A DNA stretch of 64,000 nucleotides, from NCBI GenBank assembly GCA_013239625.1, contig MU053216.1, forward strand, positions 62,001 to 126,000, written 5' to 3'. Positions 7,236 to 52,940 of the stretch are shown here, one piece after another; positions within the stretch are counted from its first letter, which is position 1; the number at the start of each line of letters is the position of its first letter. Position numbers and translations under genes: made by a program. The notes under the pieces are model-generated. The model was not told where the DNA came from and did not search any database. It saw nothing but the letters and a program-made list of their open reading frames with translations. The stretch is from Lama guanicoe. Its lineage: Eukaryota.

Positions 7236-8030
7236 GTGAGTACGGGTAGGGCTGGGCGCGGGTAAGGAGCTTGAATGTCCACACCCCTCACTCTAGATCA
7301 TAACTAATCCCACCCTAGTAGTCGAGGCGCCTAGTAACAGCATAGAGGTCCTTACCACAGTGTTCACACCATGGGCACTTAGTAGTTATAGACTGATTCG
7401 ACTTCAGAAGTATGAGTAGCACTGTGTCACACTAAACCCAGCTGGCCGCCACTGTTTGAGCGCCTTCCTGAGCTGTGGGTATAACTCCCAGGGTGCTCTA
7501 CCAGTCATGCCCTGAACTCACTGTTAAATTGTGTTAAACTGGTGTTTGGTGGAACTCAGAAGTTTGCATCTTTCTCCCTTCATATGTCTCTGTTTCACTG
7601 CTGAATGAACAATAATAATTCTAAGAAAACATGGAAATCTTTTTATCAGTTCTCCTAACTTTTCAGGCCTTTGAACCCTGGCCCTTAGACAGCAGCGTGC
7701 TAATGCTTTTCCACTTTAGGGAAGGAGGTCAGTCTTCAGCCCAGTGCCTTATGGAGTAGAAAGGAGTCAGATACTGGAGAATGGAAAGACTTTAGTTCCT
7801 CTGGAATCCTTGGAAAGAGGCAGACGTACAGAAGGCCTGCCTCTCTGAGAGCACCACAGCAAGCAGGAGGTTTTCATCCAGTAGGCAGAGAACCTCTGCT
7901 TAGAAGGCTTCTCGGTGGCAGGTGAAGAAGCAGAGGTGTGTAGATAAAAACAGAAAGGGCAGCAAAAAGTGAGGCCTAAGACTTGTGTGACTGAAATGAC
8001 AGAGGTGCCCCTTCACTCCTGAACCCACAG

Positions 8031-8226
8031 AGCATCACTCGAAAGAGACGCTACGTGGCCTCAGTGTCCCTGCATGACCGGATCTATGTGATTGGTGGCT
8101 ATGACGGCCGTTCCCGCCTCAGTTCAGTGGAATGTCTCGACTACACAGCAGATGAGGATGGGGTCTGGTATTCTGTGGCCCCTATGAATGTCCGGCGAGG
8201 CCTGGCTGGAGCCACCACCCTCGGAG
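8031..8226 (+). CDS. KLHL12: KLHL12 coding exon, kelch repeats
   Basis: ccacag| ... G|gtagg; [38 protein letters not shown]...GATTLG. Confidence 0.96.
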
Positions 8227-8652
8227 GTAGGCTGGTGCACAGGGCGGTGTTTCCATTTGGGGTGGCTGGATTGGGGTTCATACCACTCCACAAAATGTAG
8301 GAGCCACTGGTAAGGTCAGAGGTGCCTTTCTGCTTTTGGAAATACTCATGGATGTCTCAACACTGACAACAAAGGTGGTAAATCAAGTTCCAGTGTGCTG
8401 AGTGGGGAACTGGCACTAGTATTTTTGCAAACTCACATCTAGTCTTGGAATGTTTTTGAAGATTCTGTCTTACCCCATTCTTTTTCTGTGTCTTGACTGT
8501 ACTATTCTCTTTGAAAAAAGAAAAAGACTTAATTGATTTATCCCATAAAAAACACTTGTCTTTACCCCCAAACATTTGAAAGAGTTGTGGAGAAAAGAGT
8601 TATTAGAAACCTCTCATTCTCTAATAGTCTGTGGTTTGTTCTTTCCAAGCAG

Positions 8653-8811
8653 ATATGATCTATGTCTCTGGGGGCTTTGATGGAAGCAGGCGTCACACCA
8701 GCATGGAGCGATATGACCCAAACATTGACCAGTGGAGCATGCTGGGAGACATGCAGACAGCCCGGGAAGGCGCCGGCCTTGTCGTAGCCAGCGGAGTGAT
8801 CTACTGTCTAG
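8653..8811 (+). CDS. KLHL12: KLHL12 coding exon, kelch repeats
   Basis: aagcag| ... G|gtgtt; (D)[27 protein letters not shown]...VIYCL. Confidence 0.95.
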
Positions 8812-9121
8812 GTGTTCCATCTGGGCGCAGGAGAGAACTTGATGGGTGGCGTCCTCTGGGTGGGGATCCCTGTTAGTAGAATTAAGTTTGTAGACTTCCT
8901 TGAACTGAAACCTGAGTCTGTCCCATTGTCTTTCATTAACTGGGGTTCTTTTTTTCCTGAAAGCAAGGAACAGGGGCCTGTCAGATTTCTCTTTGGATTA
9001 TTGGAACCCTTGAGGGAGAACCAGAACTAGAAGAATTAGTTGAAACCCTGGAGAAAGGCAGCCTGGGGTGGGCGTAAGGATTTACCGTTCTTTCTGGAAT
9101 GGTCTCTGCTTTGTCTTTCAG

Positions 9122-9220
9122 GAGGCTATGATGGCTTGAATATCTTAAATTCAGTTGAGAAATATGACCCCCACACAGGACACTGGACTAATATCACGCC
9201 AATGGCCACCAAGCGCTCTG
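9122..9220 (+). CDS. KLHL12: KLHL12 coding exon, kelch repeat
   Basis: tttcag| ... G|gtaag; (G)[32 protein letters not shown]. Confidence 0.96.
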
Positions 9221-9902
9221 GTAAGACCCATCATATGGGAGGGGGCAGTGGACAGTGCTGTCAGATCTTCACACGTGTAGGGCTGCAGCCACAGGTCAGG
9301 CATTGAGCCTGAGCTGGAGTCCCTTCTGCACTGGAGATGGAGTAAAACAGGAGTCAGACCCATTCTCCCCGCAACCTCAGCTTCCAGCCAGACTACAGTT
9401 TGAGGGCAACGCCTTCTTGTCTTACTCATTTTTAATGTCTTGGTTCCCTCCCTGCATTCTGAGTATCTGGTCCAATTCCATGTATATAGTGCGTGCAGAG
9501 TGGTCTCACACACGTGCAGTAGAGGGGCTCCTGAGTGCCCTGGGCGGGGACACAAGGAAGGGGAGAGCCCTGCCGCTGGGCACAGTGCTGCAGACCCAGA
9601 GTCACAGCCTTTCCTCACAGCCTTCTTTTCTCCCTTCCTCTTCTCCTGATGAAGAGGGCTGGGCTCTGACCTGATGAAAGCGAGGTTAACAACCAGTTCA
9701 TTTTCTCTTTTCTCATTTCAAGTCCTGCCCAGAGGGTTTACAGGTGGGATAGCCTATGCTGGCCTGGATTCTTCTAGGCCTGTCTGGCCCAAGTCCACAT
9801 CCCTCAGCCACCCCATGTTTCAGCTCGCCACCACTGACCACGTCTTTCCAGGATTCAGGCCCTAAGCTTAGTACTGTTCACTTTGTGTACCTTTCTCCCC
9901 AG

Positions 9903-10089
9903 GTGCAGGAGTAGCCCTGCTGAATGACCATATTTATGTGGTGGGGGGATTTGATGGCACAGCCCACCTGTCTTCTGTTGAAGCGTACAACATTCGCACC
10001 GATTCCTGGACGACGGTCACTAGCATGACCACCCCGCGATGCTACGTCGGGGCCACAGTGCTTCGGGGGAGACTTTATGCAATTGCAGG
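9903..10089 (+). CDS. KLHL12: KLHL12 coding exon, kelch repeats
   Basis: ccccag| ... GG|gtgag; (G)[35 protein letters not shown]...RLYAIA; not in ORF track, read manually. Confidence 0.95.
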
Positions 10090-10270
10090 GTGAGGGTTTC
10101 AACAGACCAGAGTCCTTGTGCCTCCAGAGCAGTGTGATCCAATCTGCACTTCGGGGTTCAGGGTTTGGTTCAGGGGTGATGTCTCCACGGCACCCTTGCT
10201 GTAGGACTTGTGAGGGGAGGACCGTGCGGGGAGGGATGGGGAGCTCATCTCCTTGCCTCTCCCCCATCAG

Positions 10271-10397
10271 TTACGACGGGAACTCCCTGCTGAGCAGCAT
10301 CGAGTGCTATGACCCCGTCATCGACAGCTGGGAGGTCGTGACCTCCATGGGAACCCAGCGCTGTGACGCTGGCGTGTGTGTTCTCCGAGAGAAGTGA
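10271..10397 (+). CDS. KLHL12: KLHL12 last coding exon
   Basis: catcag| then (G)[44 protein letters not shown]. Confidence 0.96.
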
Positions 10398-11688: not shown

Positions 11689-13963
11689 AAAAAAAAAACA
11701 GGGGTCTCAAATGTCTGTAAGCAAGTTTGTGGCAAACCAGCACCGCCTTGCAGACATTTTGGGGGCCAGGCATAGAGATTAGGTGTAGGTCCTGTCTCTT
11801 CAACCTGTTCACCTGTGTGTTTGCCAATCAGCTCTGCTGTGTGTCTGTTAGACAGGGGAGAGGTCTCTGGAGATTCTCATCAGTGAAATGTCTGTACGCA
11901 TGTTCATGGACTCCTCTCACAATTGGGGTTTACTTGAAAACCACAAGAAATAAAGGAGAGGCAGTTTGGGCTTCAAGTTGTACCTACTTGTTTTAGAGTT
12001 TTAGTTGCCCCAGTCGTTTTTCCATTTGCTTCGGTTTGTGCCACGTGATACAGTTATGCAGAAGGCCTGCAACACTGCAAAGATGCTGATACTCCGAGAG
12101 CAAAGGGAAGGGGGGGAGCCAGAGCCTTTCACAAAAGCAGCCCGCCCCTCGTGAGCACGTTGATTGTGCCTGCTGATTAAACCAAGCTGTGATACACAGG
12201 ACTCAGCCTCTCCGAGGCAGAGAAGGGCTCCTAGGCCAGCTTCTCTGCTTGCTTTTCTGAGTTTCAGACCAGATTCCCAGTCGTTCTCACGTGGCAGCCG
12301 TGGCTGATGCCCTGTTGCGTCCTCTGTGCCTGCCCTAGTCTTCGGTACTGCGCTGCTTGCGTACCTGCACGAAGCTGCCCCTTACTTGCTGGTCCCTCCT
12401 GTTTTTACAGCTCCATGAACTGGCACCAGCCGCTTGGTTATCCAACCTCTGTCACCTGTGTGTGTGACCACCACAGTACAGATATCCAGTTAATTTCCAG
12501 GTTGTAGATAGCTTGGCTTTAATTGTTCCAAACCCATTCCTGTATTTTTATTCCCTCGGCTACCACATAGTTCAGACTTTATCTCTTACCCAGACTCAAG
12601 GTTATAGTCTCCTGATAGCCTTACTTCTGCTCTTCTGCCTGCCAATCTGGCCCCTCCATTTTGTCATCAGTTATATTTCTAAACCACAGATAGGGTATTA
12701 CAGTACCTAACATACAGCACATTTTCAGTAAATACTAAAGTTGTTGCTGACCTAACATTCCATAGATTCCCATTGCCCATATTACAAAGTTTGAATTCCT
12801 TAACCTGACATTAAGACCCACGGTGATCTGGGCACACTCTGCCTTTCTGATCTTACTCCTTCACCCTTTTTCCCCAGTATAATGTGCTCCAACCACAATG
12901 GTCTGCTGGCCATTCCTTAATTTGTTCTCACACACTGTTCCTTCTATCTAAAGTAACCTTGCTCTCCTGACAAAGTCCTAGTCACCTTTTAATGTCCAAC
13001 TCAAGCGTCACCTGGGTAAAGCCTTTCCTGTCTCCCCGGACAGAATTCCTCCTAACCTCTGCTTCCATCTACTTTGTTCCCTTTCGCATAGTTTGGCCCC
13101 ATCTTCCTGGTGAGTCTATGTTCTCAAGTACAAAGTGCCTACCGATCCTCAGGGTGTATAGCCTATTCTGTAACTGCTAGGAAATGTTGTTTGTGAAGGA
13201 CAAAGTGGAAGAAGAAAAAGTGCAGACGGGGTGGTGGGTAGATGAGATATTAATCCAGGGGCTTGGTTCCCCTGTCCTTCAGGAAGGCAGACCACGTGGG
13301 CAGCACTACAACTAATAAGCCAGAGATCTTAAGACTAATCAGAGTAGTGAAACAACGCCGAGCAGTGGCTTCCTGCCATGCCTGGATCGGTGGACTCGGG
13401 AAGGTAGCCTTCCTTCCTGCACTACAATCCTGTAAGGAAACCGTGGTGGCTCGAGAGTTTAGTTTCTAAAGCGCTTCAACGCCACGTCTTGCCACGTAGT
13501 AAATGGTCAGTGTGATGAGAACAGAGCAGCAACTAAAACTTCAAGCACCTTTTTCCGCCCCAGAGGTATGTGTCCCTGCAAGTCGTGCCCCGTGGGAGCC
13601 GCTGCGGCTGAGACCTGGTGATGAGGGTCTGACCCCGGGTCGTCCCCGTCGTTCACGAGACTAAATGCACACCCGCACTGGACCAGTTTTCACTCAGTGT
13701 AAGGGAAGCCCGGCGCCCAGGTGAGCGTGGGCAGAGGCTGTGTCACATCCGCGAGGCGTCTGTCACAAAGCCATGTCAACACCCAGCCTCCCGTCCGGCG
13801 AAGGGCGGCGGTTGTGCAGTGGCGTCCAGGGCGGGGAAGCGGCGCCTGCGCAGAGAGAGCGCCGCCGGCTCCCGCGCCGCCGCCGAGACTGCGCCTGCGC
13901 AGTGCGGAGAGGTCGCACTGAGACCGCGCCTGCGCATCGCCGGGACGAGGTCTAGGTGGCGGC

Positions 13964-14089
13964 ATGGATCCTGTGGCGCCGCGGAGCGAGCTGGTGTCTG
14001 CCGAGGGCCGGAACCGGAAGGCGGTGCTGTGCCAGCGCTGCGGCTCCCGCGTGCTACAGCCCGGCACCGCGCTCTTCTCCCGCCGGCAG
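13964..14089 (+). CDS. RABIF: RABIF (MSS4, Rab-interacting factor) coding exon 1
   Basis: ggcggcATGG Kozak context; MDPVAPRSELVSAEGRNRKAVLCQRCGSRVLQPGTALFSRRQ|gtgag; first CxxC zinc motif. Confidence 0.96.
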
Positions 14090-14403
14090 GTGAGGCGGCG
14101 CTGCAAGGGACGAGGGAGGGCCGGCGAAGCCGGGTCCCCGCTCGGCCCGGACCCCCAGCCGGACGCTCTCGCCACGAACCCGCCGACCCTCAGCCCTGGC
14201 TCCTGCCTGGGTCCGGATGGCGGCCCCGGGGCGGACACACGGGGACACCCGGCCGGACGCCCGAGCCCCGGAGCCGCGCCTGCAGACCGCGGGGTTCCGA
14301 CGCCGGGCCCTGCAGACTGACTTTCGAGGGCGCCTGAGCGTTACTTCCTCGGGGTCGGGTGCTGGTTCCCGTCGTCCCGCTGTTACCTCTCCGAGCCTCC
14401 CCC

Positions 14404-16462: not shown

Positions 16463-18398
16463 AGAAGGGGGAAAATCAGAAAAATTATTGTAACAGGTTT
16501 TATTCTCATCTGGACTGTAGCATGTTTGCCAAGTTTTCTATGAGAATGTACTTTCACAAAGAGAAAGAAAATTTTTTATTTTTAAAAGGGTACCCTTAAC
16601 ACTTCTTGAAAAAAGCAAAAGAGGTGTCACAGAGACAACAGATCCTCCTGAGTTGTGTGGTGGTCTTCATGTCTCAGGAGCGGGGGTGCTGGCTAGGCTC
16701 CTGACTGCAAAGTTAACTTACCTGGTCAGGGATCTGGTACTTTGGCCCCCAACCAGCTGAATTAGCTGCTTCAAAGTAGGTACTAGTTTCTTGATTTCCA
16801 TCCCACTGGTCTATCCAGAAAGCCTCATTGTATCCATGTGTTACATCTGTAGCCTGACCATGGCAGCTGTGCTCTGCTTTGCTGAGATCATGTGCACAGA
16901 TATGGGTCTGACGTACAGGATCCCAGTAAAAATGGGAAGTTGAGGAATAGAGGGAGCAGGACCCTGTGGACCCCTCGAATGAACATTGACAATGGTATTG
17001 TCCTTTAGTCACTAATCAGGGAGGGGGAAGTTCCAGGTCAGAGCCCCCTCCTCCCTGTCAGGGATAGCCTACCGGCATCAGTGGCCCAGAGTCCAAGCTC
17101 CAGGGTCTGTCAAAGCCACGGGCAGCTCTGTGGACCTCTCACTAACATTCTGGAAGGGGCCTACTCATCCTCACAGAGTGTTTACCTGCTTCAGACTGAT
17201 GTGAGTCTAATTTTTTAAGTAGTTTTAAATTGCTTTTATTCCAGTTGCTGATGCCAGGCTAGCACAATAAAGCTGTCCTGTTTTGTTAGAGTGTGGGGAC
17301 ACATCAGCCGTGTGCCATGGGGTGGGATATGCTCAGTGTGTCAGCAGAGCCCGGCAAGGAGCAGGGAACAAGCTGCCCAGCACTGTTTTTGCAGTTGTCT
17401 GGGGCAGCTGCAGTGTGAAAGTAAGCGTGAGGATGAGAGCGGAGGGAGCATGTGCGTGTGCGTGTTTGCGTGTGTCAGGGGCTGTCTCCCAGTGGGTGGG
17501 AAGGCATGTTGATCGGGGGTACGAGCATCCTCGAGATAATATTCCACATTCTGGAACTAGATTTTCCTTCTTAGTGCTCCTTTTATAAGACAAATTCAGC
17601 ATATTCGTAACAGTGATGGAACAGAGCAAAGCCAGGTATCCTGTATTTATTCTTGTAACAGCTGTTCAAGTTCTGCTCTGTACCAGTTGCTGTTCCAGGC
17701 ACTGAGGATGCAGCAGTGAACAAGAAAGGTAGTGGAGGGAGATGCATGGTAAATAACCAAGCCAGTAAACTAATGAGATAATTTCAGAGAACGATGAGTA
17801 GAAAACAAAGGGGGAGTGGCATCCCAAAACTTTTAGGGTGATGAGTATGCTTGTTATCTTGATTGTGGCAAAGGTTCAGGTGTGCAGGACACAAGTGCCA
17901 CAGTTTGTCAGATTGTCCACCCTAAAAATGTGCGGTGTGTCATTTATACCTCAGTAGAGCCATTTCACAGAATAAAAGTACAGTGGAGAGTGTGGGAAGT
18001 TTGCCCAGGGTGTCTGGGCAGGAAAGTCTGAGGAGGCTACCTGTGAGCTGAATGTCAGGAAGGAGCTGGCCTTGCAGGATCTGTGGGCAGAGCAGACCCA
18101 CCTGTTGGGAGAAGGCGAGGAGCTGGCAAGGCTGGAGCACGAGGAGGGGAGATGGGACAGGCGGGCCTGTGGGCCTGGTGAGGGCTGAGTTACCACGGCA
18201 ACCAGTCAGCTCCTCCCTGTCTCCTGGGAACCAGGCCTGGACCAGGGGCGGCAGGGCACTGCTGCGTATCCTAGTCTGTAACTTACAGACAAGCTTGATT
18301 TGTTCTCACCAGGAAGGTGCTGGGGGTCTTAGGGGGCCCAGTGGAGCGGGCAGGCGGGCAGGGTAGGGGCTCAGCTTTGTGTCCCCTTATGTCCACAG

Positions 18399-18644
18399 CT
18401 TTTCCTTCCCTCCATGAGGAAGAAGCCGGCGCTGGCTGATGGCAGCAGCCCCGAGGGTGACCTCCTCCAGGAGCACTGGCTGGTTGACGACATGTTCATC
18501 TTTGAGAACGTGGGCTTCACCAAGGACGTGGGCAACGTGAAGTTCCTCGTCTGCGCAGACTGTGAAATCGGACCCATCGGTTGGCATTGCCTGGACGACA
18601 AGAAGAGTTTCTATGTGGCCTTGGAGCGGGTTTCCCATGAGTAA
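18399..18644 (+). CDS. RABIF: RABIF coding exon 2
   Basis: ccacag|LFLPSMRKKP...FENVGFTKDVGNVKFLVCADCEIGPIGWHCLDDKKSFYVALERVSHE-TAA; joined CDS is 372 nt (123 aa). Confidence 0.97.
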   Translation, partial: LFLPSMRKKPALADGSSPEGDLLQEHWLVDDMFIFENVGFTKDVGNVKFLVCADCEIGPIGWHCLDDKKSFYVALERVSHE

Positions 18645-24385: not shown

Positions 24386-26138
24386 AATGATATAAAGAAA
24401 AGGAGGAGGAAAATCAGAAATAAAAATCTAAACTTAGAAAGAGTCTAGATAATAGAAATAAATCCAAATACCTTGTAAGGGGGCTAATTTTGATTGGTGT
24501 GATGTAAATAAGCGTATTGTCAAGAGCAGGGGGTCTGTAATTTCCACAAGTATCACTGAGGATGTCACTGTTTCAAGTGTATTTACCATCCCTAGGTTAG
24601 GGTGACTATTCAGTAGAGGGATGGAAGGACGTTTTAAATAATGGCTGACCTAACAGCAGGTGGAATGAATGCCAAAGAGGAAGGAAGAGAGGAAGAGATG
24701 GCAGCATTGAGTTTACTGCCAGGCAGTTCCACTGTAATCACTGATGGGCCCCCTTCAGTAGGACACACCATGTGACTTGTTTTGTTTAGGGCAGTGACAG
24801 GCAACGGGGCCCACGTCTGAGCCTTGTACATGTGAGGTTTCAAAGCACTCACTCGAATATTCACCCACACACCTTGGTCCCTGACGTTAGTCCCTGGCCA
24901 AAGGCATCCACTCTAGCACTGGCAGCTCAGCAAACCCCACTGCTGAGAGCAAAGAATACTTCCCAGAGTTCCAGGTTCACCTGGACTTGAGCCACCTGGG
25001 CCACCTGGGCATTTAGTTTAAAAATACTTCAGGATGCTTTCAAATGACATGGCTGGAGTCTAGTGGGTAAACAGGTGCAGGAATCCAGGGGTCACTGGCG
25101 AGGGACACAGTAACCTTGTCTTCCTGAGCTCCACCAGCAGGAAGTCATTACTGCTACAGATTTTCTAAGGCAAGAATTCAAGCCTCCAAGGCCAGCCGGC
25201 CCACACCAGGTGCAGTCACCTATCCACTGGGACGTGAGAACTGGAGATGACAGGTGCTTGAGTTCCCATGGAAGGTGCTGTGCATATAAGTAGGGAGGGC
25301 ATCACTGTGCGGCCCCCATCATCTTACACAACTAAACGCCAGCTTGCCCTCTCAAACTGGGAGAAGGCCCAGTGTGCTACACTTAGGTATTTAGAAGCAA
25401 AACCTCACCTCTGACACCAGACAGTTTGGGGAGAGGGACAATGTGTGTGTGTGCCCTGTATCGTAGAAAAAACATGAAACCACTACTGGGGGGGAAAAGT
25501 ATATGTGTGTGCTGCCTAAAATGCTGCTCTAATCACATCACTCCTCTGATCAAAGACGCTCAGTGGCACCCCAGAGCCAGTGCGATTACAAGCAAACTCT
25601 TCAGGCCAGCATCCAAGGCCCTAGCCCGCCTTCCATCTTTACTTACTTACAAGTCTTCTTCAAGCTGGTTCAGGCAGTCTGGGGCTTGGAGTCACCTGAC
25701 CTGGAGCAGTTGCCCCAGTCAAAGGGGAGGTAAGTTTCAATTACCTGCACCAGCAGTGCTCTCCGCACACCTGTCTGCCGCCCTTCCACCCAGCCGCACT
25801 GTGTCCTGCCTTAGAACCCCCAGCTCCCACCTCCACCCCCCGCACCCGGTTGCATCAGCACCTTTCCCTCTGTGGTGGCTGCGAACCTCAGGTGTGCGCC
25901 ACCCTCCAGTTACGCACTTTTCCAACAGGTCCGCGGTGTTCCCCATGTAATGACCTAAGACAACAACGGGATGGAGGCTCTCCCAAAGCTTTAACCTCTC
26001 AGTTCCGGCACACACTCCACTAGAGCAGAGAGGGTCGAGCTGGTGGGAGGACTCGGACCCAAGAGGCATTCCCTCCCTTGGGCTTTACAAACCCCCATGA
26101 CAGGCCAGGGCGGGGATAGTTCAGAAGCGGCAGCCCCA

Positions 26139-26171
26139 ATCGCTTCTCGGCCTTTTGGCTAAGATCAAGTG
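26139..26171 (+). pseudogene. RNU2: U2 snRNA 3'-truncated retropseudogene (nt 1-33)
   Basis: ATCGCTTCTCGGCCTTTTGGCTAAGATCAAGTG matches the U2 5' end; flanked by agaagcggcagcccca / aaaagcggcagccca direct repeats. Confidence 0.92.
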
Positions 26172-26199
26172 CAAAAGCGGCAGCCCAATAGCAGAGGGG

Positions 26200-27060
26200 A
26201 GAGGGACCTCACTGGGCGCCCGGCAGCAGAAGAGCACGCGGGGTGAGGGTGGCCCCGGCCCAATCGGAGCCGCGCTGGGCTGCAAGGTGGCAGCTGGGGA
26301 GATTTACGCCCCTCTAGCCTGCCGGTGCCGGGACTGGAGGAGCAGCACGGGGGTCTCCATGGCCGCCGGGTAGCGGGGAGTGGGGGCGCAGCTGCAGGTA
26401 GCCCGTCTGCTTCGAGGGCCCTCCGCACACTTCACCTATTGGAACAGCCGTGGTAGGGGGTCTGGGGGCGCTCAGGGAGTCTGCGGTGCGCAGGCCGCAG
26501 GGCCCTGGGGAGCTCGTGGAGACGGCAGGAGCCCCTTCCCGCCAGGGGCGCATGCGCTGGAGGAGTCCCGGGCGCCCTGGCCTGGACACCGGGATCCTTC
26601 CCGCCCCCAGCACGGCCCCGCAGCCGAGTGCCCGGGGCTCCCTCAAGTCTGTCCAGTTCTGACTCCTGCTAGAGGTCAGAGGCCCCCGAGCTTCGGCCCT
26701 AGCTGACCAGAGGTGCTCCTGGTGCCAGGGAGGGAGGCCTCTGCGCTCCTCTCCGCGGTCGGCTCCCTATACACGGACGCGAAGTCCCTCCGTTGGACGA
26801 AGAACCCACGTGTGTACACAGCCCCGCCGCCTCTCGGGAAACTCTGGCCGCGACCCCTGTCCGGAGCCCCTGCAAAGGCTCTGAGGCTGTCCTTAGGGTA
26901 GCTCCTAACGAAACTGTCAAACTGCTACGGGTCCGGGAGAACCCCCTGCGCTGGGAGGAGGAAGTCTTTCTAACTGATCCGCTCTGGCGGCAACGGCAGC
27001 GGGCGGACCTGACTCAGGAGTCTGCCCATCGCCGCCGGACTCGCCTGAGTGAGGAGTTCT
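26200..27060. promoter_or_regulatory. Orphan CpG island / promoter remnant
   Basis: Dense CpG; CCAAT near 26260, ATTGG near 26438, perfect NRF1 palindrome GCGCATGCGC at 26548-26557; no intact gene adjacent. Confidence 0.65.
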
Positions 27061-27594
27061 GACTGGTGAGGTGAATCTTCTGCCTCTGTGGTGACCCCTG
27101 AGCAGCCCTCATCTGGATTAACTCAGCTGCACTGCAGAGGCCCAGACAAGTGTCCAGAGTAGAACACCCCCCAGAAGGGGACAGTGTGAGTGCGCTTTCC
27201 AACCGACCCTGACTCCAGAGCCTCTGCCTCTGTGAACCCACAGACCTGCACTTAGCCTTCTGCCCGCAGGGTGTGGCGCACACAGGGCCCTGGCGTGGAG
27301 ACCCCTTCTGCACGGGGTCCAGTGTTAGACGCTTCCGGGACTGTCTTGGCCTGCGAGCCTCTGAGCCTTCCCTAGCCACCTTGGCCAGCGGACACGGCAC
27401 TGGCCAGGTGTTTGGCTGCTTGGTCTTGGTTTTCTTTAGTTCCTGCCCCTGAAGACCTCAAGCCCTGAGTAAATGAAAAATGAGGGCCTTATACGTGGGG
27501 GGCCTGGAAAGGGAGCCCAGTCTGCTAGGCTGCAGCTTTCAGGGAGGATTTCAGGGCCCCTCCCTCCTCTTGGAGCTTTGCTCTGCTTCCCCAG

Positions 27595-27765
27595 CCCCTT
27601 GCCCCCACCTGTGGGCCGGTGGGCAGTGCCAGCCCGAGGGCACCGCACCCAGGGACATGGCCTAGGGACCCATGAGGACCCCTCCAACACACTGTCTTCA
27701 GTAATACCTGAGCTGATGAGCACAGCACAAAGCTGACGTTGTGGACCTGGGGCTTTCTGTCCTGG
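27595..27765 (+). pseudogene. TUBA5P: Alpha-tubulin unprocessed pseudogene, exon 2 remnant
   Basis: ccccag| ... QPEGTAPRDMA*..DPSNT..FSNT*ADEH..VDLGLSVL(G)|gtgagt versus QPDGQMPSDK..DSFNTFFSETGAGKH..VDLEPTVID; phase-1 donor at the canonical alpha-tubulin position; symbol assigned from recalled human synteny. Confidence 0.75.
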
Positions 27766-28501
27766 GTGAGTGGGCACCTGGGGCCCCCTCCCCACCCAAA
27801 GTCAGGGGAGCTCCACACAGGGGGGGAGCTCCACACAGGGAGGGAGCTCTTGGAGTGCAGCAGTGAGGCTGAGCTCCTGTGAAACTGTCTTCAGGAAGGG
27901 GCCCTGCTCCCTGGCAAACAGCTCTGCCCAGAAACTGCCAACTATTTGAGTTGGGGTCAGACCCAGAATGGAGACCGAAATAAAGAGCAGATATGAAAGT
28001 GGAAACTGTAAACTTCCTTTCCTTCCCTCGGACTCTTGAGGACAGCAGAACCAGGGCTGAGGACACTCCCACGTCCCCGCTCAGCCTGAACTGGGACACC
28101 CCGATGGGATGTGGGCCCCCATGAACTCAGCTGCTGTTGGCTCCTGGGGGTCCCCTGCTGCCTCCTTTCTGCATCTAGATCTCCTCTGTTTCCTGTTCCT
28201 GAAAACCCCTCCCCCATCTTTCTGATGACCTGTTGTAGACAGTAAACTATGGGCTGGGTTTTCTACACTAGTCTGTGTTCTTATCCCAATCAGAAGTCCA
28301 TGAGATTCCCCTAAACACCCCTGATTCCTCAACAAGCAGGATGGAGTGTCTGTGATCAAAGGAGGGGCCTGGAAGGGACCCCAGACTCCCCTCACTGGCC
28401 AGGCGGGACTGGTTTGGAAATGGGCCTCAGGTGCCCTCATGCCCTGTTGTGGGTCCCTTGGGGGCTCAGCCTCCCTGTGTCCTTGTGCTCATGTCCTCAA
28501 G

Positions 28502-28624
28502 GTAGGTAAGAACCAGCACTCCCAGGCACCCACCCTGAGCACCTGCCATTGGGCAAGGAAGACCCAAGGCCACTGCTCGTGGGAAGGGAGCTCCTCCACC
28601 AGGTGCTGGAGGGATCGGACACTG
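28502..28624 (+). pseudogene. TUBA5P: Alpha-tubulin unprocessed pseudogene, exon 3 remnant
   Basis: VRTST..HPEH..GKED..VGRELLHQVLE versus VRTGT..HPEQLITGKED..IGKEIIDLVLD; donor decayed to gggag. Confidence 0.75.
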
Positions 28625-29940
28625 GGGAGCAGACCATGTGCCCCTGGCCCCTGCAGGAGATCAGTGTGTCCGCAGCCCCTTCCCTGGCCCAGGAGGCTGG
28701 ATACGTGCGGGAGAAAGGGAACCACAGGTGTGGGCTGTGGCTAGTGCCAGCAGTGTCCACATGGCTCCTCTGGCCTCTGTCCACTTGGTTTCCCCTGGGA
28801 CAGCTGTGTGTCTGCTTGTGGATCCAGGGTTAGAAGCCTGAACAGCTGGCCCTGCCCTGGGTCTCTGGATTCAGGCTCTGCCCAGCTGGCTCCTCGCTTT
28901 GCTGGCCTGATTTCTGACCCCAGCCGCCTTTGGTTCTGATCCGCATCTAGCCCAACAGGTCAGGGGAAGCTGCCCTGATGCTCTGCTTGTCCTTAGACTC
29001 CTGAGCAGGGCTTTCCAGCGGGGAGAGGCTCCTGCTTACCTCCAAGCCCTTCCCCATTTCACCCCGTCCCCTGCCCCAGGAGCAAGAGCCAGGGGGTGAG
29101 GCCAGCAGGGAACCAGCAGTTGGTGCTGGACCTCTAGAGTGTTGTCCAGGTGCTCCCTTTTGCTCAGACTGAGGACTCAAGTGACCTGAGGACATAAAGC
29201 GCCCCTAGGCTTAGACTTTTCTTAAAAGGAGAATTTTCTTTTTTTCAGTCATCACTTCGCATAAATCTACTTTTCTTTTCTTTTTTTTTTGCTTTTTTTA
29301 AAGTTTATTTTTATTGATATAAAATTGACAGGTAACATTATGTTAGTTTTGGGTATACAATGTAACTTGATAGCGTGTATATATGGTGAACAAATGGAAA
29401 ATTTTTATATTGTCACTAGCATGTGTCTGGTACAGGTGGATGCTTTTCTAGTCCGAGGAACACCAAGGGCACCTGTTACAGCTGCAGGCTCCTGGGTTGC
29501 AGTCTGAGGTAGGGCCTGAGAATCTGCATGTTCTACGAGATACCCCACCCTCACTCCCCTGCAGCGAGGTAGCAAAGCTCTGACCACACTCCCTGCATCC
29601 CCTGACCCACAGCACAGCCTTCCAGGTCCTGTGTCTCCCCAGAACTCCATGCCCCCTGTGGGCATTGTCTTGTCACTTCTGAAGAGTGAAAAGAAGGGGT
29701 GGGAATTCCTGTATTTGGCCTGGCTTCTCTCCAGGTGTATAACATTGTCAATCACTCACTGTACAAACAATAAAATGTATGCAGTTAAGCGTAACATATG
29801 CCTCAGAGTCTTGTTTTTTAAACTACAGAAGTGGATACAGTTGTAGAGCTCACAGTGGCTTTCCAGACAGAGAAGGGCTCTGTCGAGAGAGGAGAGCTGG
29901 GGCAGGTGACGTACCATCCACATCCTCAGTGTCACCCTGG

Positions 29941-30513
29941 ATGGACCAGGGCTCCGGCTTCTGGTTCCAGGTCTCCTGACATCCACAGCTTTGGGGGCAC
30001 TGGCTTAGGACCCCCTCCCTGCTGACATGGCAGGAAGCCATGAGTTTGCTCCTTCCCCAGCCCCCAAGTGTCCACAGAAGATGTCGGATCCTTACAGCTC
30101 CAACCTGACCACCGGGGGCACCCAGACTCTACCATGATGGTGGACGTGAGGCCATCCATGATACCTGTCGCCCCAACCTAGACATCGAGCGTCCCACCCA
30201 CACCTACCTCAGCTGGCTCATCACCACCCCACTGCTTCAAGGGTGTTCTGGATGTGGACCTCACAAGCCCCAGACCCACCTGGTACCCCTAGTCAGCAAC
30301 ACACCTGTTGTCTTGGCTACGAAGGATAGCCAGGAGGAGCTCTCAGTGTCCAGGTCACCACTGCCTTCTGTGAACCCTCCAGGCAGAGGTCAAATGTGGC
30401 CTTCGCCGTGGCAGACCCACGGTGGGTATGGTGCGGAAGGGTGTGAGTGCCTCTGTGGCTGTGGTGGAGACCAGGCACTCATCTGGCTGGGGCTGGTGCC
30501 CATGGCTCCCAGG
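29941..30513 (+). pseudogene. TUBA5P: Alpha-tubulin unprocessed pseudogene, exon 4 remnant
   Basis: With frameshifts: DQGSGF..HSFGGTG..DPYSSNLTT..HPDSTMMVD.EAIHDTCRPNLDIERPTHTYLSWLI..LDVDLT..QTHLVP..EELSV..CEPSRQ.VKC..WCP; matches alpha-tubulin about aa 126-352; ends at gcaagt. Confidence 0.9.
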
Positions 30514-31688
30514 GCAAGTGGGGATGTAGGGAGGGGTCAGCAAGCAGCCTGTGTGCCCACCAGGAGGGGAGGGTCCCGCAGAGCTGTCAGCATGGAAACA
30601 AGTGCCGAGGGGAGAACTGGGCAAGAGCAGCTCCGAAGGCTGTCTTCCACTTAACAGATCTCGGCCTATCTCAAACCCAGACTTTGGCCTGTGTGCCAAG
30701 GCTGGTTCTACTGGAAGTTTGCACTGACGAAAGGAAAAGTATGTGTCATGTGTGTCAGCCTGGCAGACAGGCGTCCTGGGCATGCCAGTCAGGCTGGGGC
30801 AGGGCCCGCACCATCCACCTGCTGGGGACACACCCACTGACTGTGGCTCCTGCTTCAAAGGGGTCAGGGATGCAGAAAGGCCTGCCATTTAGACAGTGGG
30901 CAGAGCAGGGCAGAAGGTCTGTGAATACCGTCTCTTCGAGTAACTGGTACGCACTGCCCGAGGGGCTGGGGCACGTGGCATGGTTTTGTTCCAGAGGAGA
31001 TTGTCACAAGGTTTTATATTTTTTAAACTATTAATTTTCTAAATTCCAGGAAAGTGATGAGACTGGTACAATTAACGCCCATGTCCCTACAACCCGGATT
31101 CAACATCTAAGTGTAAAGTGTTTATTTTGCTCTGCTGACCCAGTTACACTCACAGCTACTTCGTAACACACAAGTCTGTTTTTGTCACTGACAAGGCTAA
31201 TAACGCTTCCCTAAAGCAACACCTAGTCAGTAGTCCAACCTTCCCAGTGGCCACAACATTTTTAGTCAGTTTTCCAAAGTTAGGGTATAATCAAGGAGCA
31301 GGCGTTGTATTTATTTGTGTCTTAAATCTTATAATGTAAATCAGTCACCCTTTCTCTTGACTGTGACTCGAAGGGACCAGTCTTGTGGTCTTGAAAATCC
31401 CACACTCTGTTTCCTGGTGGTGGCGAGCACGCAGCTCTGTTCCCACGTTTCTCCCCGGCTGGTAGTGCTGACACCAGGTGACTGCCCATGAAGAGGGGGC
31501 ACGGGGTCCAGAGATGGCAAGGATGGGGGTGAGGACCAGGGGTGCCGACGCCCTCTCCCCCCAACATTGCATCTCCTCCCACTGTTCCCTACACCCTGCA
31601 GATGCAGTCTATTCTGCACATGGTGTGGAACTGTAAAGACCCTGCCCATCCTTCCCAACATCCTTGCTCCCCTTCCAAGTTAAGGCAG

Positions 31689-31860
31689 GTGGCCTCTGCC
31701 TCCAGGAGTGTCAGGTGGAGGCCTGGACCCACGGTCCTGGGTGAGCCGACCCTCCCAGCAGGCATTCAGGGCTCAGAAACCGCCTCAAGAAAGGTGAGCT
31801 GACTAGGGGTTCTGGCCGAAGCTTCTGGGAGTGTGTCGGCCCTGGAGCCGGACACCGGAC
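31689..31860 (+). pseudogene. Possible alpha-tubulin exon 5 remnant
   Basis: Colinear fragments EAW, DL, QQAF, LKKGELT, SALEPD versus EAW..DL..KRAF..MEEGEFS..AALEKD; very degraded. Confidence 0.4.
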
Positions 31861-34775
31861 ACTGGAAAGACTGTCTCAGTCCCTCAGTGGGAAAGGATCA
31901 GCCCCTGTCCTCCCCTCTCACGGCAGCAGAGGGCAGTAGAGAATGCACAGCATCTCTCAGGCCAGTGGGCACAAGGACACTACCTGATGCGTTATTAAGG
32001 CACAGGGTCCAGGAACCAAAAGACCAGGTCTTTAGCTACAAATACGAAGTAACTTATAAAGTGCCCATGAGCCTTGTGGGTGAGGATGTCCATATCTTTT
32101 GCACTCAAAGGGGCCCCAAAGAGACAGGAACTACTGTTCTAGGGCCCAGCCACACAATCTGGGAGGTCAAGGCCCTGTCAGTAAAGGGCCTGGCAGGAGT
32201 TCCATGCTAACCTGGACGCCCCTCGAGCACAGCCCCGGTCCAGGCGGCCTGAGAGGGCCCCTCAGGGAGGCAGGAGTGGCCCCGTGCTCTCCAAAAGGAA
32301 GACCCTCGAGCAGAGCCCAGCCCAGAGTCCCCAGAAGGGTGGCCTGTGATCTGGGCCTGGGTTTACTGCTCTGACTTTTGGACACTCATTTCTAGCATGT
32401 AACTTGGGGTGTGCGTCTGCACCAGTGAGAGAGCACTGCCTGGAAGTATCACCAGTGGCCTTGCCTTGGGTTCAGGGGAGGAGTTACTAGCACTAATCTA
32501 GGCACTGACCCCAACGTCAGTGAGTCCTGCTTGACTGACCCCTGGGAGGGGTTTGCTAAGAGGGTGGTGCCCAGGCACCCTGCCTGTGACTGCTGCAGGT
32601 GGGGGCCGGCAGTCCCAGGCGGTGGGTCTCTGGTTCCTCAGGGCAGAGGTCTGACGGTCTCCCACCCGACAAGGCCCTCAGCCTCCCTTATTGGATTGTC
32701 TTCATTTTACAAAGCCCAGCTCTGACCCTACCTGAGTCTTCCTGACCTGTACCCACTTCCTTCCATTCTAGGGAACAGTCTCCTTTGCTATAGCTGTAAG
32801 CTTTCTGTTTTAGAACCTAACCTCCTGATTCCTCTAGGACCCTGGAGCCCAGGCTGGGGGGAGTTAAGGTATAGGAGGAAGGGAGGAGTTTAGAAAAACC
32901 TGCCTGGTGCCCTGTCAAGGCTCTGGGTCTGTGTCTGGTGGGAACGTCCAGCCTGCTCCAGTTCCTTTCAAATTACAGAGCCCTTGGTGGGGTGAGGATG
33001 GAGAAAGTACTGCCTTGGGAGTTGTGGTCTGAAACCAGACACTTGGAATCTTAACAAGGCTCTACTTAACACACGAGCACAGCGTGAGCATTACTGTTGC
33101 TAGGCTGGGCTTTTCTCAAAGATGCTGCTAGTGGAGATGGCGACTGCTGGACTGTGGTCCTGGCCACAGCAAGGTCTGAGCCCAGATGACCACCTGCGGG
33201 CACCATGGCCTTCCCTCTGCACCTGACCCAGCACCCAGGAGCCCTGCGGGAAGCTGGCTCCATGGAGAGTAGGTGGTTATCCTGCTGGTGATCCAGGCAG
33301 AAGACTAGAGGGAATGAGCCTAGAGCACATGGCCTATAATACAGGCTAAGCCAAAATGCACTCGGATGGGACGGGAGACACGACTGACTCTCTCTCAGTG
33401 GTGCCTGGTTTCAAGCTGGTTCCTCACCTGAGCTGTGTCTGAGGTAGCTGAGGGGGCCTTTAGAGCTGACCTCTCCAGGGGTAGATTTGGATGCACCTGT
33501 TGGATGCGTTAACAGGTTTCTTCACGTATAAGGTGAAGGACCGGATCCTGGGTCTAACTGTTCCTTCGCGAAGATTTTTCCGTCTCCTGACCCCCAGGTC
33601 TTCCCTGACTCCCCACCTCCATAACTCTCCAGGCCTTCCGACCCTCAGCCCTTTGGGGATCTGTGATGTGACCAGCACTGTGCACGGTCCCTCTGCCTCT
33701 GGCAAGGAACCTGCCTGGCGCTCCTCCTGTCTTCCTTCAAGCTCCTTTGAATTGGGATGAAAAGTGTGCACAGTGTGCCCAGATGATGCAGGCAGCCCAG
33801 CCCAGCCACAGGAAGGCGTCTGGGAGGCAGACACTGGGGGTGGCAGGGTGCTCAAGGCCGAGACTGCTGCAGGAAAGGAATGGAACATACTCTTTATTCT
33901 TTAGCATTCACAGCACATTCAGCTGTTCCAACACCATTTGTTGGAAAGACTATTATTTTACCCACAGAACTGTCGATGGCCTTTGACAAACTGGTCCTTT
34001 CTTAGTCCTGTGGCTTCACCTTCTACCCCACCCCTGCTCCAGCTGGCCCCCCACCTCAGTCCCACTAAATGGTGCGCTTTCCCGAATGAGCGGTGCTCCT
34101 TCTCGGCTTGGGCCCACTTCTCTGCATGCCACTGCCTTCACTAGTAAAGCTCCCGAGCTCCCTTCCCCTCCTGGCTATCTTCTCCCATCACCTGGCAGGT
34201 CTAGGCTTAGTCATCGCGTCTTTCCAGAAAGCCTTTCCTAAGCGCCCAATACAGTTTTGGCAGAGATGTGTGCTCCCCAAAGACCCTGTGTTTCTCAACC
34301 CAAAATGAGTTTTCTGTCCTCAACACATAGTAGGGATTCAATAATTCTGAGGAATGGATGAACCCCAGAGGTCAGGGAAGAAGACTTTCAAGGAGTAAGC
34401 CTAGTTTATAGTGTATTGCTGCAGAGAGTTAAGGAGAATGAGGTCTGGAAAAATGCCACCAGGTTTTGACTATCTTGTCCTTACGGTTTCAGCATTACTG
34501 TGGAGGCAGAGGCCAGTGTGGGGGTTAAGGAGTGAACTATTGATGAGAAAGTGAACTATTTATGCCCAAGTTTGTTTGTGAGGATTGGCACATGGAACAG
34601 CTTAGAGGGGCAGAGTTAAGGGGTTAATTTTATTGCCGTCCATCCACCTGCAGCATTCCAGATCTTGACAGTTTGACTTCTAAAGAGAATCTCTTTCTTG
34701 GTTCTTACGGCATCAGTTCCAGGGCCTCCCAATTCACCCTCCTGTTACACCTCACCTCTAACTATGTGTGTTTGT

Positions 34776-35057: not shown

Positions 35058-36231
35058 CTAACTTCTCATCGTGTTGATGGATCTCTTGTCCAGAGCTGCT
35101 TCCATGTCTCTGGCCTTTTCCTCCCGGAGGTAAGTGCGCCTGACGATGAGACCGCCAAGCTGAGTAACGTTCACCATCAGCCTCGCACAGCTCACCTCAG
35201 ACCCCGTGCTCTTCAGAAGTATCTCCTGGTCCAGCTGCCCTTCCAAGAGGTGGCCCAGCAGGGCAAAGCCGGTGCAGTGCTGTGCTGTCCCCTCCAGGCT
35301 GTAGCCTAGCTCCACCTGCCCCTTGTCCAGGGCATGGTTCCCATCCAGGATGGTGCCCATCAGCACCTGTACCCTTGTCAAGTTGCCGGGTGGTTGAGGA
35401 TGACTGTCAGGTGGTTCCCTGCACTAACACTGCAGGTCCAAAAGAACGACCCGTCCAGAGTGTAGGCCTCCCAGGGGAAATGAACACGGAAGACCTTCAT
35501 ACCCGTGAAAACGGTTCCTGGTGGATTATTGGGATCGTAGGGGCCCCTTCTCTGGGCTCTCAGGGCCTTCTGGCTGTCGTTAGAGGTGTGATAGGGCATC
35601 CTGTGGTAGAAGAGGAAAGGTCAGCAGAGGATTGGGTTCTTCTGGGCCAAGATGGCACGGAAATGTGGGATGAGCCGGTCCAGAGGCTTTTCCTTGTGGA
35701 AGAGGAGGAGGAAGTGGGCCAGGACTGGGAGGTCCCTGTTGTGGAAGAGTTTCCCAAGGAAGCCCATGTTGGAGAACTCCAGGAGCACCCAGGGTTCAGA
35801 CTTCAGGGTGTGCACCTTCCAGTGGATGTGAGTAATGAAGCTGGGGTACACAGGACATTGTCCTCCAGCAGCAGGAAGTATTCGGAGAGCTTTGAGGCAA
35901 AACTCATGAGGAAGGCGTGGTCTACATTCTGCTTCGAGTTCAGCCCCTTGCGATCGATCGGCCTTGTCACTGACACCACCCTCGCTGAGGTAGGCGTCGG
36001 TTGGAGCATGGTGCAGCAGCAGCTGCCCCGCCAGGATCTGTGGGCTGAAGAGGCTCGACATGTGGAGGACGGTCTCTCGGAGCCAGGTGAGGTCAGAATC
36101 CGCCAGGTGGACCAGCACCGTGAGGTGTTTCTGCTCCACCTTAGAGGTAGCATGGAACAGGGAAAGCAGTGTGTAGAAGAGGCTGCTCCGGTCTGGCCGG
36201 GGCCCCGCAGAGATCCCCACCGTTAGCCACG
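35058..36231 (-). pseudogene. MGAT4EP: MGAT4E-like (GT54 family GlcNAc-transferase IV) pseudogene, large last coding exon
   Basis: tccctag| then (T)WLTVGIS..LTVLVHLADSD..SKQNVDHAFLMSF..YFLLLEDNV..WVLLEFSNMGFLGKLFH..DLPVLAHFLLLF..PNNPPGTVFT..; three frameshifts and one in-frame TGA (35621-35623). Confidence 0.88.
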
Positions 36232-36314
36232 CTAGGGAGAGGGAACGGCGTGGTCAGCGAGCGATGAGCAGGGGACGGCCTCCCTCCCTTCCCCTCCACA
36301 GAGGGGATGCTCAG

Positions 36315-46479: not shown

Positions 46480-48030
46480 TGCTCTCACGTTCCAACTGCT
46501 GCCTCTACCTGGAGAAGTCTCCTCCGCGCCCAAGATTCCGCGCCCCTCCGGGGTCTGACCCAGTGTTCGGGCACTTCCCCCAGGGCGCCTCCCACGGCGC
46601 GGGACGGGACTGGACTGGACAGAGGGTGCACTCGTGGGCCCGGCCTCTCCCCAAGACTGGTAACTTCCTGAGGGAGGGAAGGGACTCTGGCACGTAGTCA
46701 ATGGTCTGTGGATGCGGGCTGGGCTGGATCGCGAGGACGAGCTCGGTCCCCGGAGGCCGCCCCGCCCGACCCGGGGGCGGGCGCTCGGCGCCGGGCGGGT
46801 GGGGGTGGGGCGGGACTCCTTTTCCTCGCCGTGGCGGCGGAGGCGCACGGCGTGGCTGGCGCGGAGCGGCACGGCGGCGTCGGTCCGGGTCGGAGTCTGA
46901 GTCTGAGGAGCCGGATCGGAGTCTGAGGAGGACCGGGCGGAGGAGGAGGAGGAAGGCAGAGGAGGAAGGCGAGGAGCCGTCGCTCAGCCGCGTCCGTGGC
47001 GGCTGCGAGGATGGAGGCCCCCTGCCCGCGCCCCGCGCCGGCCCTCGGCGGCCCCGGCCCGCTGGGCGAGTTCCTGCCGCCGCCCGAGTGCCCGGTCTTT
47101 GAGCCCAGCTGGGAGGAGTTCGCCGACCCCTTTGCCTTCATCCACAAGATCCGGCCCATAGCCGAGCAGACCGGGATCTGCAAGGTGCGGCCGCCGCCGG
47201 TGAGTCTCGAGCAGGGCTCGTTGCCGGGAGGGCGTCGGGGCCTCGGCGCGGGGGCGGGGAGCGGCCGGGCCGGGCAGGGGTTCGGATCCGGACGCGGCGG
47301 CAGCGGCACCGGCCCCGGGGCCGCGGCCGCCCGGAGCCCGCGGGGCGGAGGCGGGCAGGGAGGCGGGCGCGGAGGCAACCTCGGGGGCGGGCGCGGGTGC
47401 GGGGCGCCGGGCGGGTGCGGGGTGCGCGCCCCGCGAGTTGTCGCGAGGAGGAAAGTTTTCAATATGGCGGCGGAGCCCCTGGTCCTTTGTGTGGAGGCGG
47501 CGGCGGCCCGGGCGGCCTCACCTGGCGCCCCACCCTCCGGGCCCGGCCCCCCGCCCCGGCCCGGACCCTCGGCGGGCCTCCTGAGGCCGGAGGCGAGGCA
47601 GGGCGGCCGCGCCGGGCGGGAGGAGCCCCGGGCCGGGCCGAGCGGACTTGCTGAGGGGGCGTGAGCCTGGGGGCCGGCCGGGCCCCTGTCCCGAGGGCCG
47701 CCTGCAGCGGGAGGTGTCACCCCGGAGACGGATGCCGCCCCGTGTCGCGACCTGGAGCTGAGGGCCCCGCGCAGCCCCCGGCCCGGGTGGGCTTGAGGGT
47801 GGGTGTTCCTGAAACGGTCCCCAACGGCTGTAACGTCACGGCGGTTGGACGGCCAGGGACCGTTGGAAGGAGATTCAACTGCTTTTCCTACAGTTTGAGA
47901 ATCTTGTCCCCACTTCGCCCCCGCCCGCACGGAGGGAGACCCCCCTCCCTCCGCTGTCTGTCTTCGGCTTGCTCTTTAGTGACGTTTGAGTTGCGGGGGT
48001 TCTGTGCGTCGCCGTTCTGCTCTGGAGAGC
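46480..48030 (+). promoter_or_regulatory. KDM5B CpG island promoter / exon 1 / proximal intron 1
   Basis: Very high GC and CpG; several GGGCGG boxes; GGA-rich 5' leader. Confidence 0.88.
47011..47199 (+). CDS. KDM5B: KDM5B (JARID1B/PLU-1 H3K4 demethylase) coding exon 1, JmjN domain; rest of gene is outside the window
   Basis: aggATGG Kozak context; [63 protein letters not shown]|gtgagt. Confidence 0.96.
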
Positions 48031-52320: not shown

Positions 52321-52940
52321 TCTCTAGGTCCATCCATGTTGCTGCAAATGGCATTATTTTATTCTTTGGTATGGCTGAGTAGTATTCCATTGTATATTTA
52401 TACTGTATCTTCATCCAGTCATCAGTTGATGGACATTGGGTTGTTTCCGTGTCTTGGCTTTTGTGAATAGTGCTTCTTTGAACATTGGGGTGGGTGTGTC
52501 TTTTTGAATTATATTTTTCTCTAAGTATATGCCCAACAGTGGGATTGCTGGATCACATGGTAAGTCTATTTTTAGTTTTTTAAGGAACCTGTGTACTGTC
52601 CTCCATAGTGGCTGCACCAATCTACACTCCCACCAACAGTGTAAGAGGGTTCCCTTTTCTCCACACCCTCTCCAGCATTTATTGTTTGTAGACTTTTATT
52701 GATGGCTGGTGTGAGGTGATATTTCACTGTAGTTTTGATTTGCGTTTCTCTGACAGTTAGCAATGCTGAGCATTTTTTTCACTGCCTATTGGCCATTTGT
52801 ATGTCTTCACTGGAGAATTGCTTGTTAAGGTCTTTTGCCTATTTTTGGATTGGGTTTCTTGTTTTTTTGATATTAAGGTGTACGTATGAGCTGTTTGTAT
52901 ATTTTGGAAATTAGTCCCTTGTCGGTCACATCATTTGCAA
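52321..52940 (-). mobile_element. LINE-1 ORF2 C-terminal segment lacking 3' UTR and poly-A
   Basis: - strand ORFs [28 protein letters not shown] and [31 protein letters not shown] match the L1 ORF2 C-terminus. Confidence 0.9.

Follow-up and report, generated by a model that had tools for sequence, protein, structure and literature searches.

The described locus closest to the element studied here, a decayed intron-containing alpha-tubulin gene (hereafter referred to as the relic) in a stretch of Lama guanicoe DNA, is human TUBA5P (ENSG00000214796). TUBA5P is annotated as a transcribed unprocessed pseudogene (PMC10374689), which bears out the existence of such a human locus, as stated in the original prediction made from this stretch, and it is given as the source of RP11-480I12.5, a long non-coding RNA (lncRNA) (PMC12506408). 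In a breast-cancer paper, TUBA1B and TUBA1C are called “parental genes” on the basis of BLAST (PMC7452110). Our literature search found no account of the origin or position of TUBA5P and no paper placing RP11-480I12 with RABIF or KDM5B, two co-mentions of KDM5B having been judged by title or abstract. Human TUBA5P presumably lies in the RABIF-KDM5B interval. The stretch analysed (hereafter referred to as the window) comprises 64 kb of contig MU053216.1, from a 2.05-Gb genome assembled in 55,231 contigs. The relic, like TUBA5P with its alpha-tubulin derivation and “transcribed unprocessed” type, is alpha-tubulin-derived and unprocessed, and is most likely the orthologue of the human locus, given the gene type and the presumed position. 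Whereas TUBA1B and TUBA1C have been named as “parental genes”, the similarity of the relic to the TUBA1 class is no greater than to the other classes.

Three further kinds of system are found in the same genome, the TUBA class names of the loci being our own assignments from the C-terminal tails. The four-coding-exon genes (TUBA1-like L011 and L012; TUBA4A-like L015 with the adjacent L014) share with the relic the introns at codon 76 phase 1 and after codon 125, and their last exon is long. The canonical variable loop of their exon 2 is also that of the relic, which is not TUBA8-like in this region, whereas the relic differs from these genes in its modest identity to them (67–69.5% at the DNA level, about 43% of codons), its lack of an open frame and the loss of its ends. 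The five-coding-exon genes (TUBA3-like L016 and L017; TUBA8-like L018) share the first two coding introns with the relic, but they alone have an intron of 1.6–2.6 kb after codon 352, a position at which the relic has no demonstrable intron. Finally, the alpha-tubulin retrocopies (L008, for example) belong to the same parent family and most have also decayed, but they are intronless and retain 84–95% protein identity to their parents, whereas the relic keeps its introns and is far older.

Identification of the relic as alpha-tubulin

Both strands of the window were searched with nhmmer (--max, filters off), with a DNA profile built from seven alpha-tubulin coding sequences of the same genome. 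Three significant matches were obtained, all on the + strand and colinear, at 27629–27824 (E = 8.1e-10), 28530–28634 (E = 5.4e-5) and 29943–30594 (E = 5.3e-62, 202 bits), and the next-ranked matches in the whole window had E-values of only 3.3 and 3.6. The tubulin alignment in exon order that had been predicted is therefore present. Protein references were also taken from the same genome, and consisted of the near full-length frame of the retrocopy L008 and 10 intron-containing loci (L011–L020). With the L008 reference, a custom frameshift-tolerant protein-to-DNA aligner (hereafter referred to as DP; jump penalty 30) gave a score of 292 over 26000–33000, against 64 for the reverse strand, 53 for the reversed protein, 56.5±8.6 for 30 shuffled proteins and 54.4±10.5 for 14 other 7-kb windows or strands. 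The six intact canonical paralogues scored 319–353, and the TUBAL3-like gene scored 238. With the same aligner, the best alpha-tubulin reference scored 353 and a beta-tubulin reference 110, confirming the predicted alpha-tubulin identity.

In a phmmer search of the PDB with window positions 30139–30252, residues 206–232 of alpha-tubulin were matched (E = 2.3e-5), and among the best 60 rows every type-specifying name was alpha, two rows also carrying the generic label “tubulin”. With tblastn, the check proposed in the original prediction, the L008 frame matched the exon 4 relic (30142–30387 plus 30395–30661, E = 4.7e-10), and the exon 3 block reached only E = 0.66.

Exon relics, splice signals and intron positions

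The exon 2 and exon 3 blocks scored 62 (null 24.3±3.9) and 54 (null 22.3±3.8) with DP, and in each case none of 200 shuffles equalled the score. Identical codons number 22/53 in the exon 2 relic, which has an in-frame TGA at 27709 and three frame breaks, and 22/51 in the exon 3 relic, which has four frame breaks and a five-codon deletion. The nhmmer match to exon 4 begins at profile position 372, corresponding to codon 126, and this relic retains 96 identical codons of 224, with 13 frame breaks and seven in-frame deletion runs. Codons 2–30 of the relic are not recognizable: DP remained at chance level for codons 3–30 searched upstream (26000–27640), and likewise for codons 378–451 searched downstream. 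The coordinates of all features are collected in Table 1.

All nine fully aligned alpha-tubulin genes of the genome have introns at codon 76 phase 1 (G/GTGAGT, the slash marking the junction) and after codon 125, and L013, shortened by an assembly gap, has both introns in the part that aligns. The breakpoints of the relic proposed at these two positions equal the introns of the nine genes. Splice signals were read from the window sequence against the junctions of the intact genes, and two of the four internal signals survive. The exon 2 donor G/GTGAGT is intact at 27765/27766 (GT at 27766–27767), and an AG at 28500–28501, behind a pyrimidine-rich run, lies at most 1 nucleotide (nt) from the predicted exon 3 acceptor. 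The remaining pair is mutated (GT to GG, AG to TG): the exon 3 donor reads GG at 28625–28626 in place of GT, and the exon 4 acceptor reads TG at 29938–29939 in place of AG. Since the gaps in the relic fall at two parental intron positions, one of them with a preserved donor consensus, the relic is an unprocessed pseudogene and not a retrocopy, as had been proposed.

The nhmmer match to exon 2 continues into intron 2 (27790–27850), where the sequence looks like the beginning of exon 3 (profile positions 255–281). This stretch holds a short direct repeat, gggagctccacacaggg, present twice, and the resemblance is probably due to chance in GC-rich DNA.

Table 1. Positions of the relic and of other features in the window.
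Feature	Position	Strand	Basis or remark
Exon 2 relic, codons ~31–76	27629–27765	+	nhmmer E = 8.1e-10
Intron 2 relic, codon 76 phase 1	27766–28500	+	~735 nt
Exon 3 relic, codons ~76–125	28501–28624	+	nhmmer 28530–28634; DP 28506–28633
Intron 3 relic, after codon 125	28625–29939	+	~1315 nt
Exon 4 relic, codons 126 to ~352, best-kept part	29940–30512	+	nhmmer E = 5.3e-62
Exon 4 continuation, codons 353 to ~390, weakly supported	30513–30641	+	nhmmer to 30594; DP
CpG island preceding the relic, possibly a retained promoter	26000–27250		GC content, CpG observed/expected
Fourth block of the original prediction, not assigned to the relic on current evidence	31583–31860	+	chance-level DP
KLHL12-like Kelch-repeat exons	7995–10394	+	Pfam on open reading frames (ORFs)
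RABIF first exon, weak match	in ORF 13922–14317	+	Pfam
Mss4/RABIF second exon	18333–18641	+	Pfam E = 1.5e-30
MGAT4 pseudogene-like stretch	35381–36253	-	MGAT4_cons at 35624–36253, E = 2.5e-40; several frames
KDM5B exon 1 (JmjN exon)	46927–47661	+	Pfam

Decay, age and the upstream CpG island

Up to codon 352, the best alignment path contains 20 frame-breaking events, one in-frame stop (the TGA already mentioned) and nine in-frame deletion runs, and the profile alignment contains 11 insertions and 28 internal deletions. The relic is a pseudogene and encodes no protein, because of these approximately 20 frame breaks, the TGA, the multiple deletions, the loss of two internal splice signals and of both coding ends, and a similarity that remains below the PF00091 threshold. 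Decay rates were estimated at sites invariant across the six canonical paralogues. Changes on the relic branch affected 57/255 first, 59/273 second and 25/103 third codon positions (Fisher p = 0.61), and this equality indicates that the decay was neutral. The Jukes-Cantor distance for the relic branch was 0.26. At about 2.2e-9 neutral substitutions per site per year in mammals, this distance would correspond to neutral drift of the order of 100 million years, a rough estimate that is biased low because unalignable parts of the relic drop out.

A CpG island lies upstream of the relic. In 500-nt windows, its GC content was 0.62–0.72 and its CpG observed/expected ratio 0.56–0.67, the ratio in the body of the relic being 0.11–0.28. 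ORFs of at least 70 amino acids (aa) in the island had no Pfam match, and no exon 1 was identified. These base-composition values are consistent with a promoter that may still be unmethylated in the germ line, as would be expected if the locus were transcribed in the manner of its presumed human counterpart. In 10 sequencing runs from four studies (six recorded as RNA and four guessed to be RNA), word shares were 0.05–0.12, providing no evidence of expression.

Relationships to other alpha-tubulin genes of the genome

The relic is single-copy in the genome at the DNA level. It shares 150–158 of 360 codons with five of the six canonical paralogues and 153 of 370 with the TUBA8-like gene. DNA identity to the six canonical paralogues ranged from 591 to 614 of 883 positions, with the highest value for the gene beside the TUBA4A-like gene, and was 552/883 for the TUBAL3-like gene. 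A maximum-likelihood tree of the relic and seven paralogues did not resolve its placement (supports of 52–63); L013 was left out of this tree for its assembly gap, L017 for having the same protein as L016, and L019 for being broken. At third codon positions, identity between the relic and the paralogues was 0.51–0.58, or 0.63–0.72 after correction for the 23% decay of the relic itself, and identity among the extant classes was 0.53–0.70.

Some of the loci retrieved for these comparisons have features of their own. The TUBAL3-like gene L020 (G000:C4415:4387500-4397499) has an in-frame stop in exon 3 of its spliced translation (…NNYA, stop, GRY…), and may be a pseudogene in Lama guanicoe or contain a sequencing error. 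The intron-containing, TUBA1-like L019 (G000:C9121:1136500-1141500) is disrupted by a frameshift at about codon 319, by an in-frame stop and by the loss of four codons, and has the appearance of another unprocessed alpha-tubulin pseudogene, of much more recent origin than the relic. L014, with the tail …EEEEGDEY, is an apparently intact four-exon alpha-tubulin gene lying head to head with the TUBA4A-like L015, about 13 kb away (G000:C55231:6568000-6590000); in human, the degenerate TUBA4B occupies the corresponding position. Ten intronless tubulin retrocopies were also fetched (L001–L010), nine of them alpha-like and one beta-like (L006). The alpha-like copies are mostly broken, a near full-length open frame (452 codons) being retained in L008 alone.

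Origin of the relic

The account of its origin that survives best, and which we regard as plausible while stopping short of calling it probable, is the unitary pseudogene of the original prediction. As developed here, the locus would have been a functional ancient isotype, for instance the mammalian counterpart of the tuba5 of frogs and fishes, lost once in the mammalian stem and leaving no surviving mammalian orthologue. The decay-corrected third-position identities are close to those among the extant classes, which suggests that the lineage is about as old as the classes themselves. In addition, only about 22% of first and second positions have changed, so that the protein would have been conserved for a period in which synonymous sites diverged. 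The third-position margin nevertheless amounts to about two standard errors (approximately 294 sites), this argument is confounded by shifts in GC content at third positions (0.62–0.92 among the paralogues) and by gene conversion, and, at the sites invariant in the six paralogues, third positions have not changed disproportionately on the relic branch. The third-position analysis therefore hints only weakly at an old lineage that may once have been functional. The relic is not nested within any extant class in the tree, nhmmer detected no tubulin neighbour in the window that could have served as a tandem source, and a CpG island survives upstream. Expression of a gene called Tuba5 in Xenopus is described in one preprint (bioRxiv 10.64898/2026.08.28.747525), but in another, chick TUBA5 is regarded as orthologous to human TUBA4A (bioRxiv 10.64898/2026.02.19.706651), so that the name tuba5 is no proof of orthology.

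A duplicate that was dead on arrival is possible too, if rather doubtful. In this case a TUBA1- or TUBA4-type gene would have been copied, introns included, into this position in an early mammal, and the copy would never have been functional. The uniformity of substitutions over codon positions on the relic branch fits such a copy, as do the probable four-exon layout, which is that of the TUBA1- and TUBA4-type genes, and the highest DNA identity (614/883), which is found with the neighbour of the TUBA4A-like gene. Nevertheless, the identities to the paralogues are nearly equal and the tree places the relic with none of them, and the corrected third-position identity to the best class (0.71–0.72) is below the value that we would expect for a source copied approximately 0.26 substitutions per site ago.

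Four or five coding exons

The full-profile nhmmer alignment passes the boundary between codons 352 and 353 with insertions of only 5 and 12 nt and extends to codon 377 at 30594. When the profile was truncated at codon 352, the score was 198.4 bits, against 202.0 bits for the full profile, so that the extension contributes 3.6 bits. When codons 353–451 were aligned with the 388 nt directly following (30513–30900), DP gave a score of 40 (null 29.5±4.6; 12 of 300 shuffles as good) or, with jumps allowed, 50 (null 35.4±5.5; 6/300), and only one of 266 random places in the window did as well. The exact register of the alignment past codon 352 is ambiguous. A DNA profile restricted to exon 5 (codons 353–451) had a best E-value of 1.1 in the 3.1 kb of 30400–33500 and of 0.58 elsewhere in the window.

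The original prediction included a weak fourth block and a TUBA8-like intron after codon 352. Three of its four colinear blocks are recovered by nhmmer, and the fourth is not. Over 31500–31900, DP gave 31 (null 26.4±4.3), a score equalled or bettered by 32 of 200 shuffles, and there was no nhmmer match at E≤10 with the full profile or at E≤100 with the exon 5 profile. The similarity in this block is treated as chance, and the supported end of the relic moves from 31860 to about 30512–30640. The intron after codon 352 is likewise not demonstrated: no exon 5 is found downstream, and the weak similarity runs straight on. For this last reason a four-coding-exon layout would be favoured, with moderate support from the alignments.

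The alternative, a five-coding-exon gene in which codon 352 is the last of exon 4, with an exon 5 either located further downstream or since deleted, is unlikely. It would account for the end of the nhmmer signal at 30502–30512 with the profile truncated at this codon, an intron is present at exactly this place in the TUBA3-like and TUBA8-like genes of the genome, and the GTGGGGA following codon 352 of the relic resembles a donor site as much as it does the start of exon 5. Against this, neither the full profile nor the exon 5 profile identifies an exon 5 anywhere in the window, the candidate of the original prediction, the fourth block, is at chance level, and the 388 nt following codon 352 score above all but 6 of 300 shuffles and all but one of 266 random places.

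A processed retrocopy split by later insertions, or chance similarity in GC-rich DNA, is extremely improbable: alpha-tubulin retrocopies are numerous in the genome (L001–L005 and L007–L010), but gaps exactly at two parental intron positions, with one donor consensus kept, and nhmmer E-values down to 5e-62 effectively refute this reading.

Assessment of the evidence

A decayed remnant of an intron-containing alpha-tubulin gene of the four-coding-exon type, likely to be the orthologue of TUBA5P, is very probably the explanation of these observations. Several results pull in the other direction. In a six-frame PF00091 search of the genome, none of the 80 matches listed lay in the contig of the window; the stop-free ORFs of at least 70 aa over the relic had no Pfam match at E≤0.01; and a protein homologue search with the 181-aa ORF at 30109–30651, confined to proteins of similar length, returned none of 325 candidates at E≤0.001. 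The evidence for four exons is weak (a gain of 3.6 bits, p of about 0.004–0.04, and an exon-5-only profile that is not significant), and the strong similarity ends within a few bases of codon 352, as it also would in a five-exon gene. The orthology with TUBA5P and the transcription of the locus are both inferred. The failure of the protein-family tools is attributable to the relic being too broken for them, and agrees with the original statement that the ORF track gives almost no hint of it, no tubulin family having been found by Pfam on the ORFs over 27595–31860.

The ancestral gene would most likely have had the TUBA1/TUBA4-type layout, interrupted by introns at codon 76 phase 1 and after codon 125 but not after codon 352. 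Neutral drift of approximately 0.26 substitutions per site would then have followed, and any present activity may consist of a non-coding RNA driven from the putative promoter in the CpG island. The relic is a real and very old unprocessed pseudogene of a commonplace class, with a probable counterpart already annotated in human.

Genomic context

Pfam was run on the 293 stop-to-stop ORFs of at least 70 aa in the window. The matches to Mss4 and JmjN in the flanking ORFs confirm that the relic is set in the RABIF-KDM5B interval, as had been stated. It lies on the + strand, like RABIF and KDM5B, with RABIF on one side and the MGAT4 pseudogene plus KDM5B on the other. The MGAT4-family stretch is frameshifted, because its Pfam matches are spread over different ORF frames: MGAT4_cons is matched in two overlapping frames (E = 2.5e-40 and 2.2e-9) and MGAT4A_C in a third ORF (E = 1.3e-3). 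Downstream of KDM5B exon 1, where the DNA is AT-rich, ORFs at 52929–54023 on the - strand match CCDC144C (E = 1.5e-33) and DUF3496 (E = 1.4e-10). This stretch is probably a pseudogene fragment within the first KDM5B intron.

Implications

For annotation, the value of this finding lies in the recovery of a relic that is invisible to ORF tracks and Pfam. The relic explains the GC-rich, CpG-poor stretch in the RABIF-KDM5B interval, and perhaps also the adjoining CpG island. In its most far-reaching form, which we advance tentatively and with more doubt than confidence, the proposal is that the relic and TUBA5P represent a distinct ancient vertebrate isotype encoded between RABIF and KDM5B, functional until the mammalian stem and lost once, and that the CpG island at its promoter has persisted for about 100 million years beyond the coding sequence and at present gives rise to a non-coding RNA. 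If the unitary loss is true, the ancestral vertebrate set of alpha-tubulins would contain one more isotype, and the human lncRNA RP11-480I12.5, which cancer papers derive from TUBA1B or TUBA1C, would acquire an evolutionary origin.

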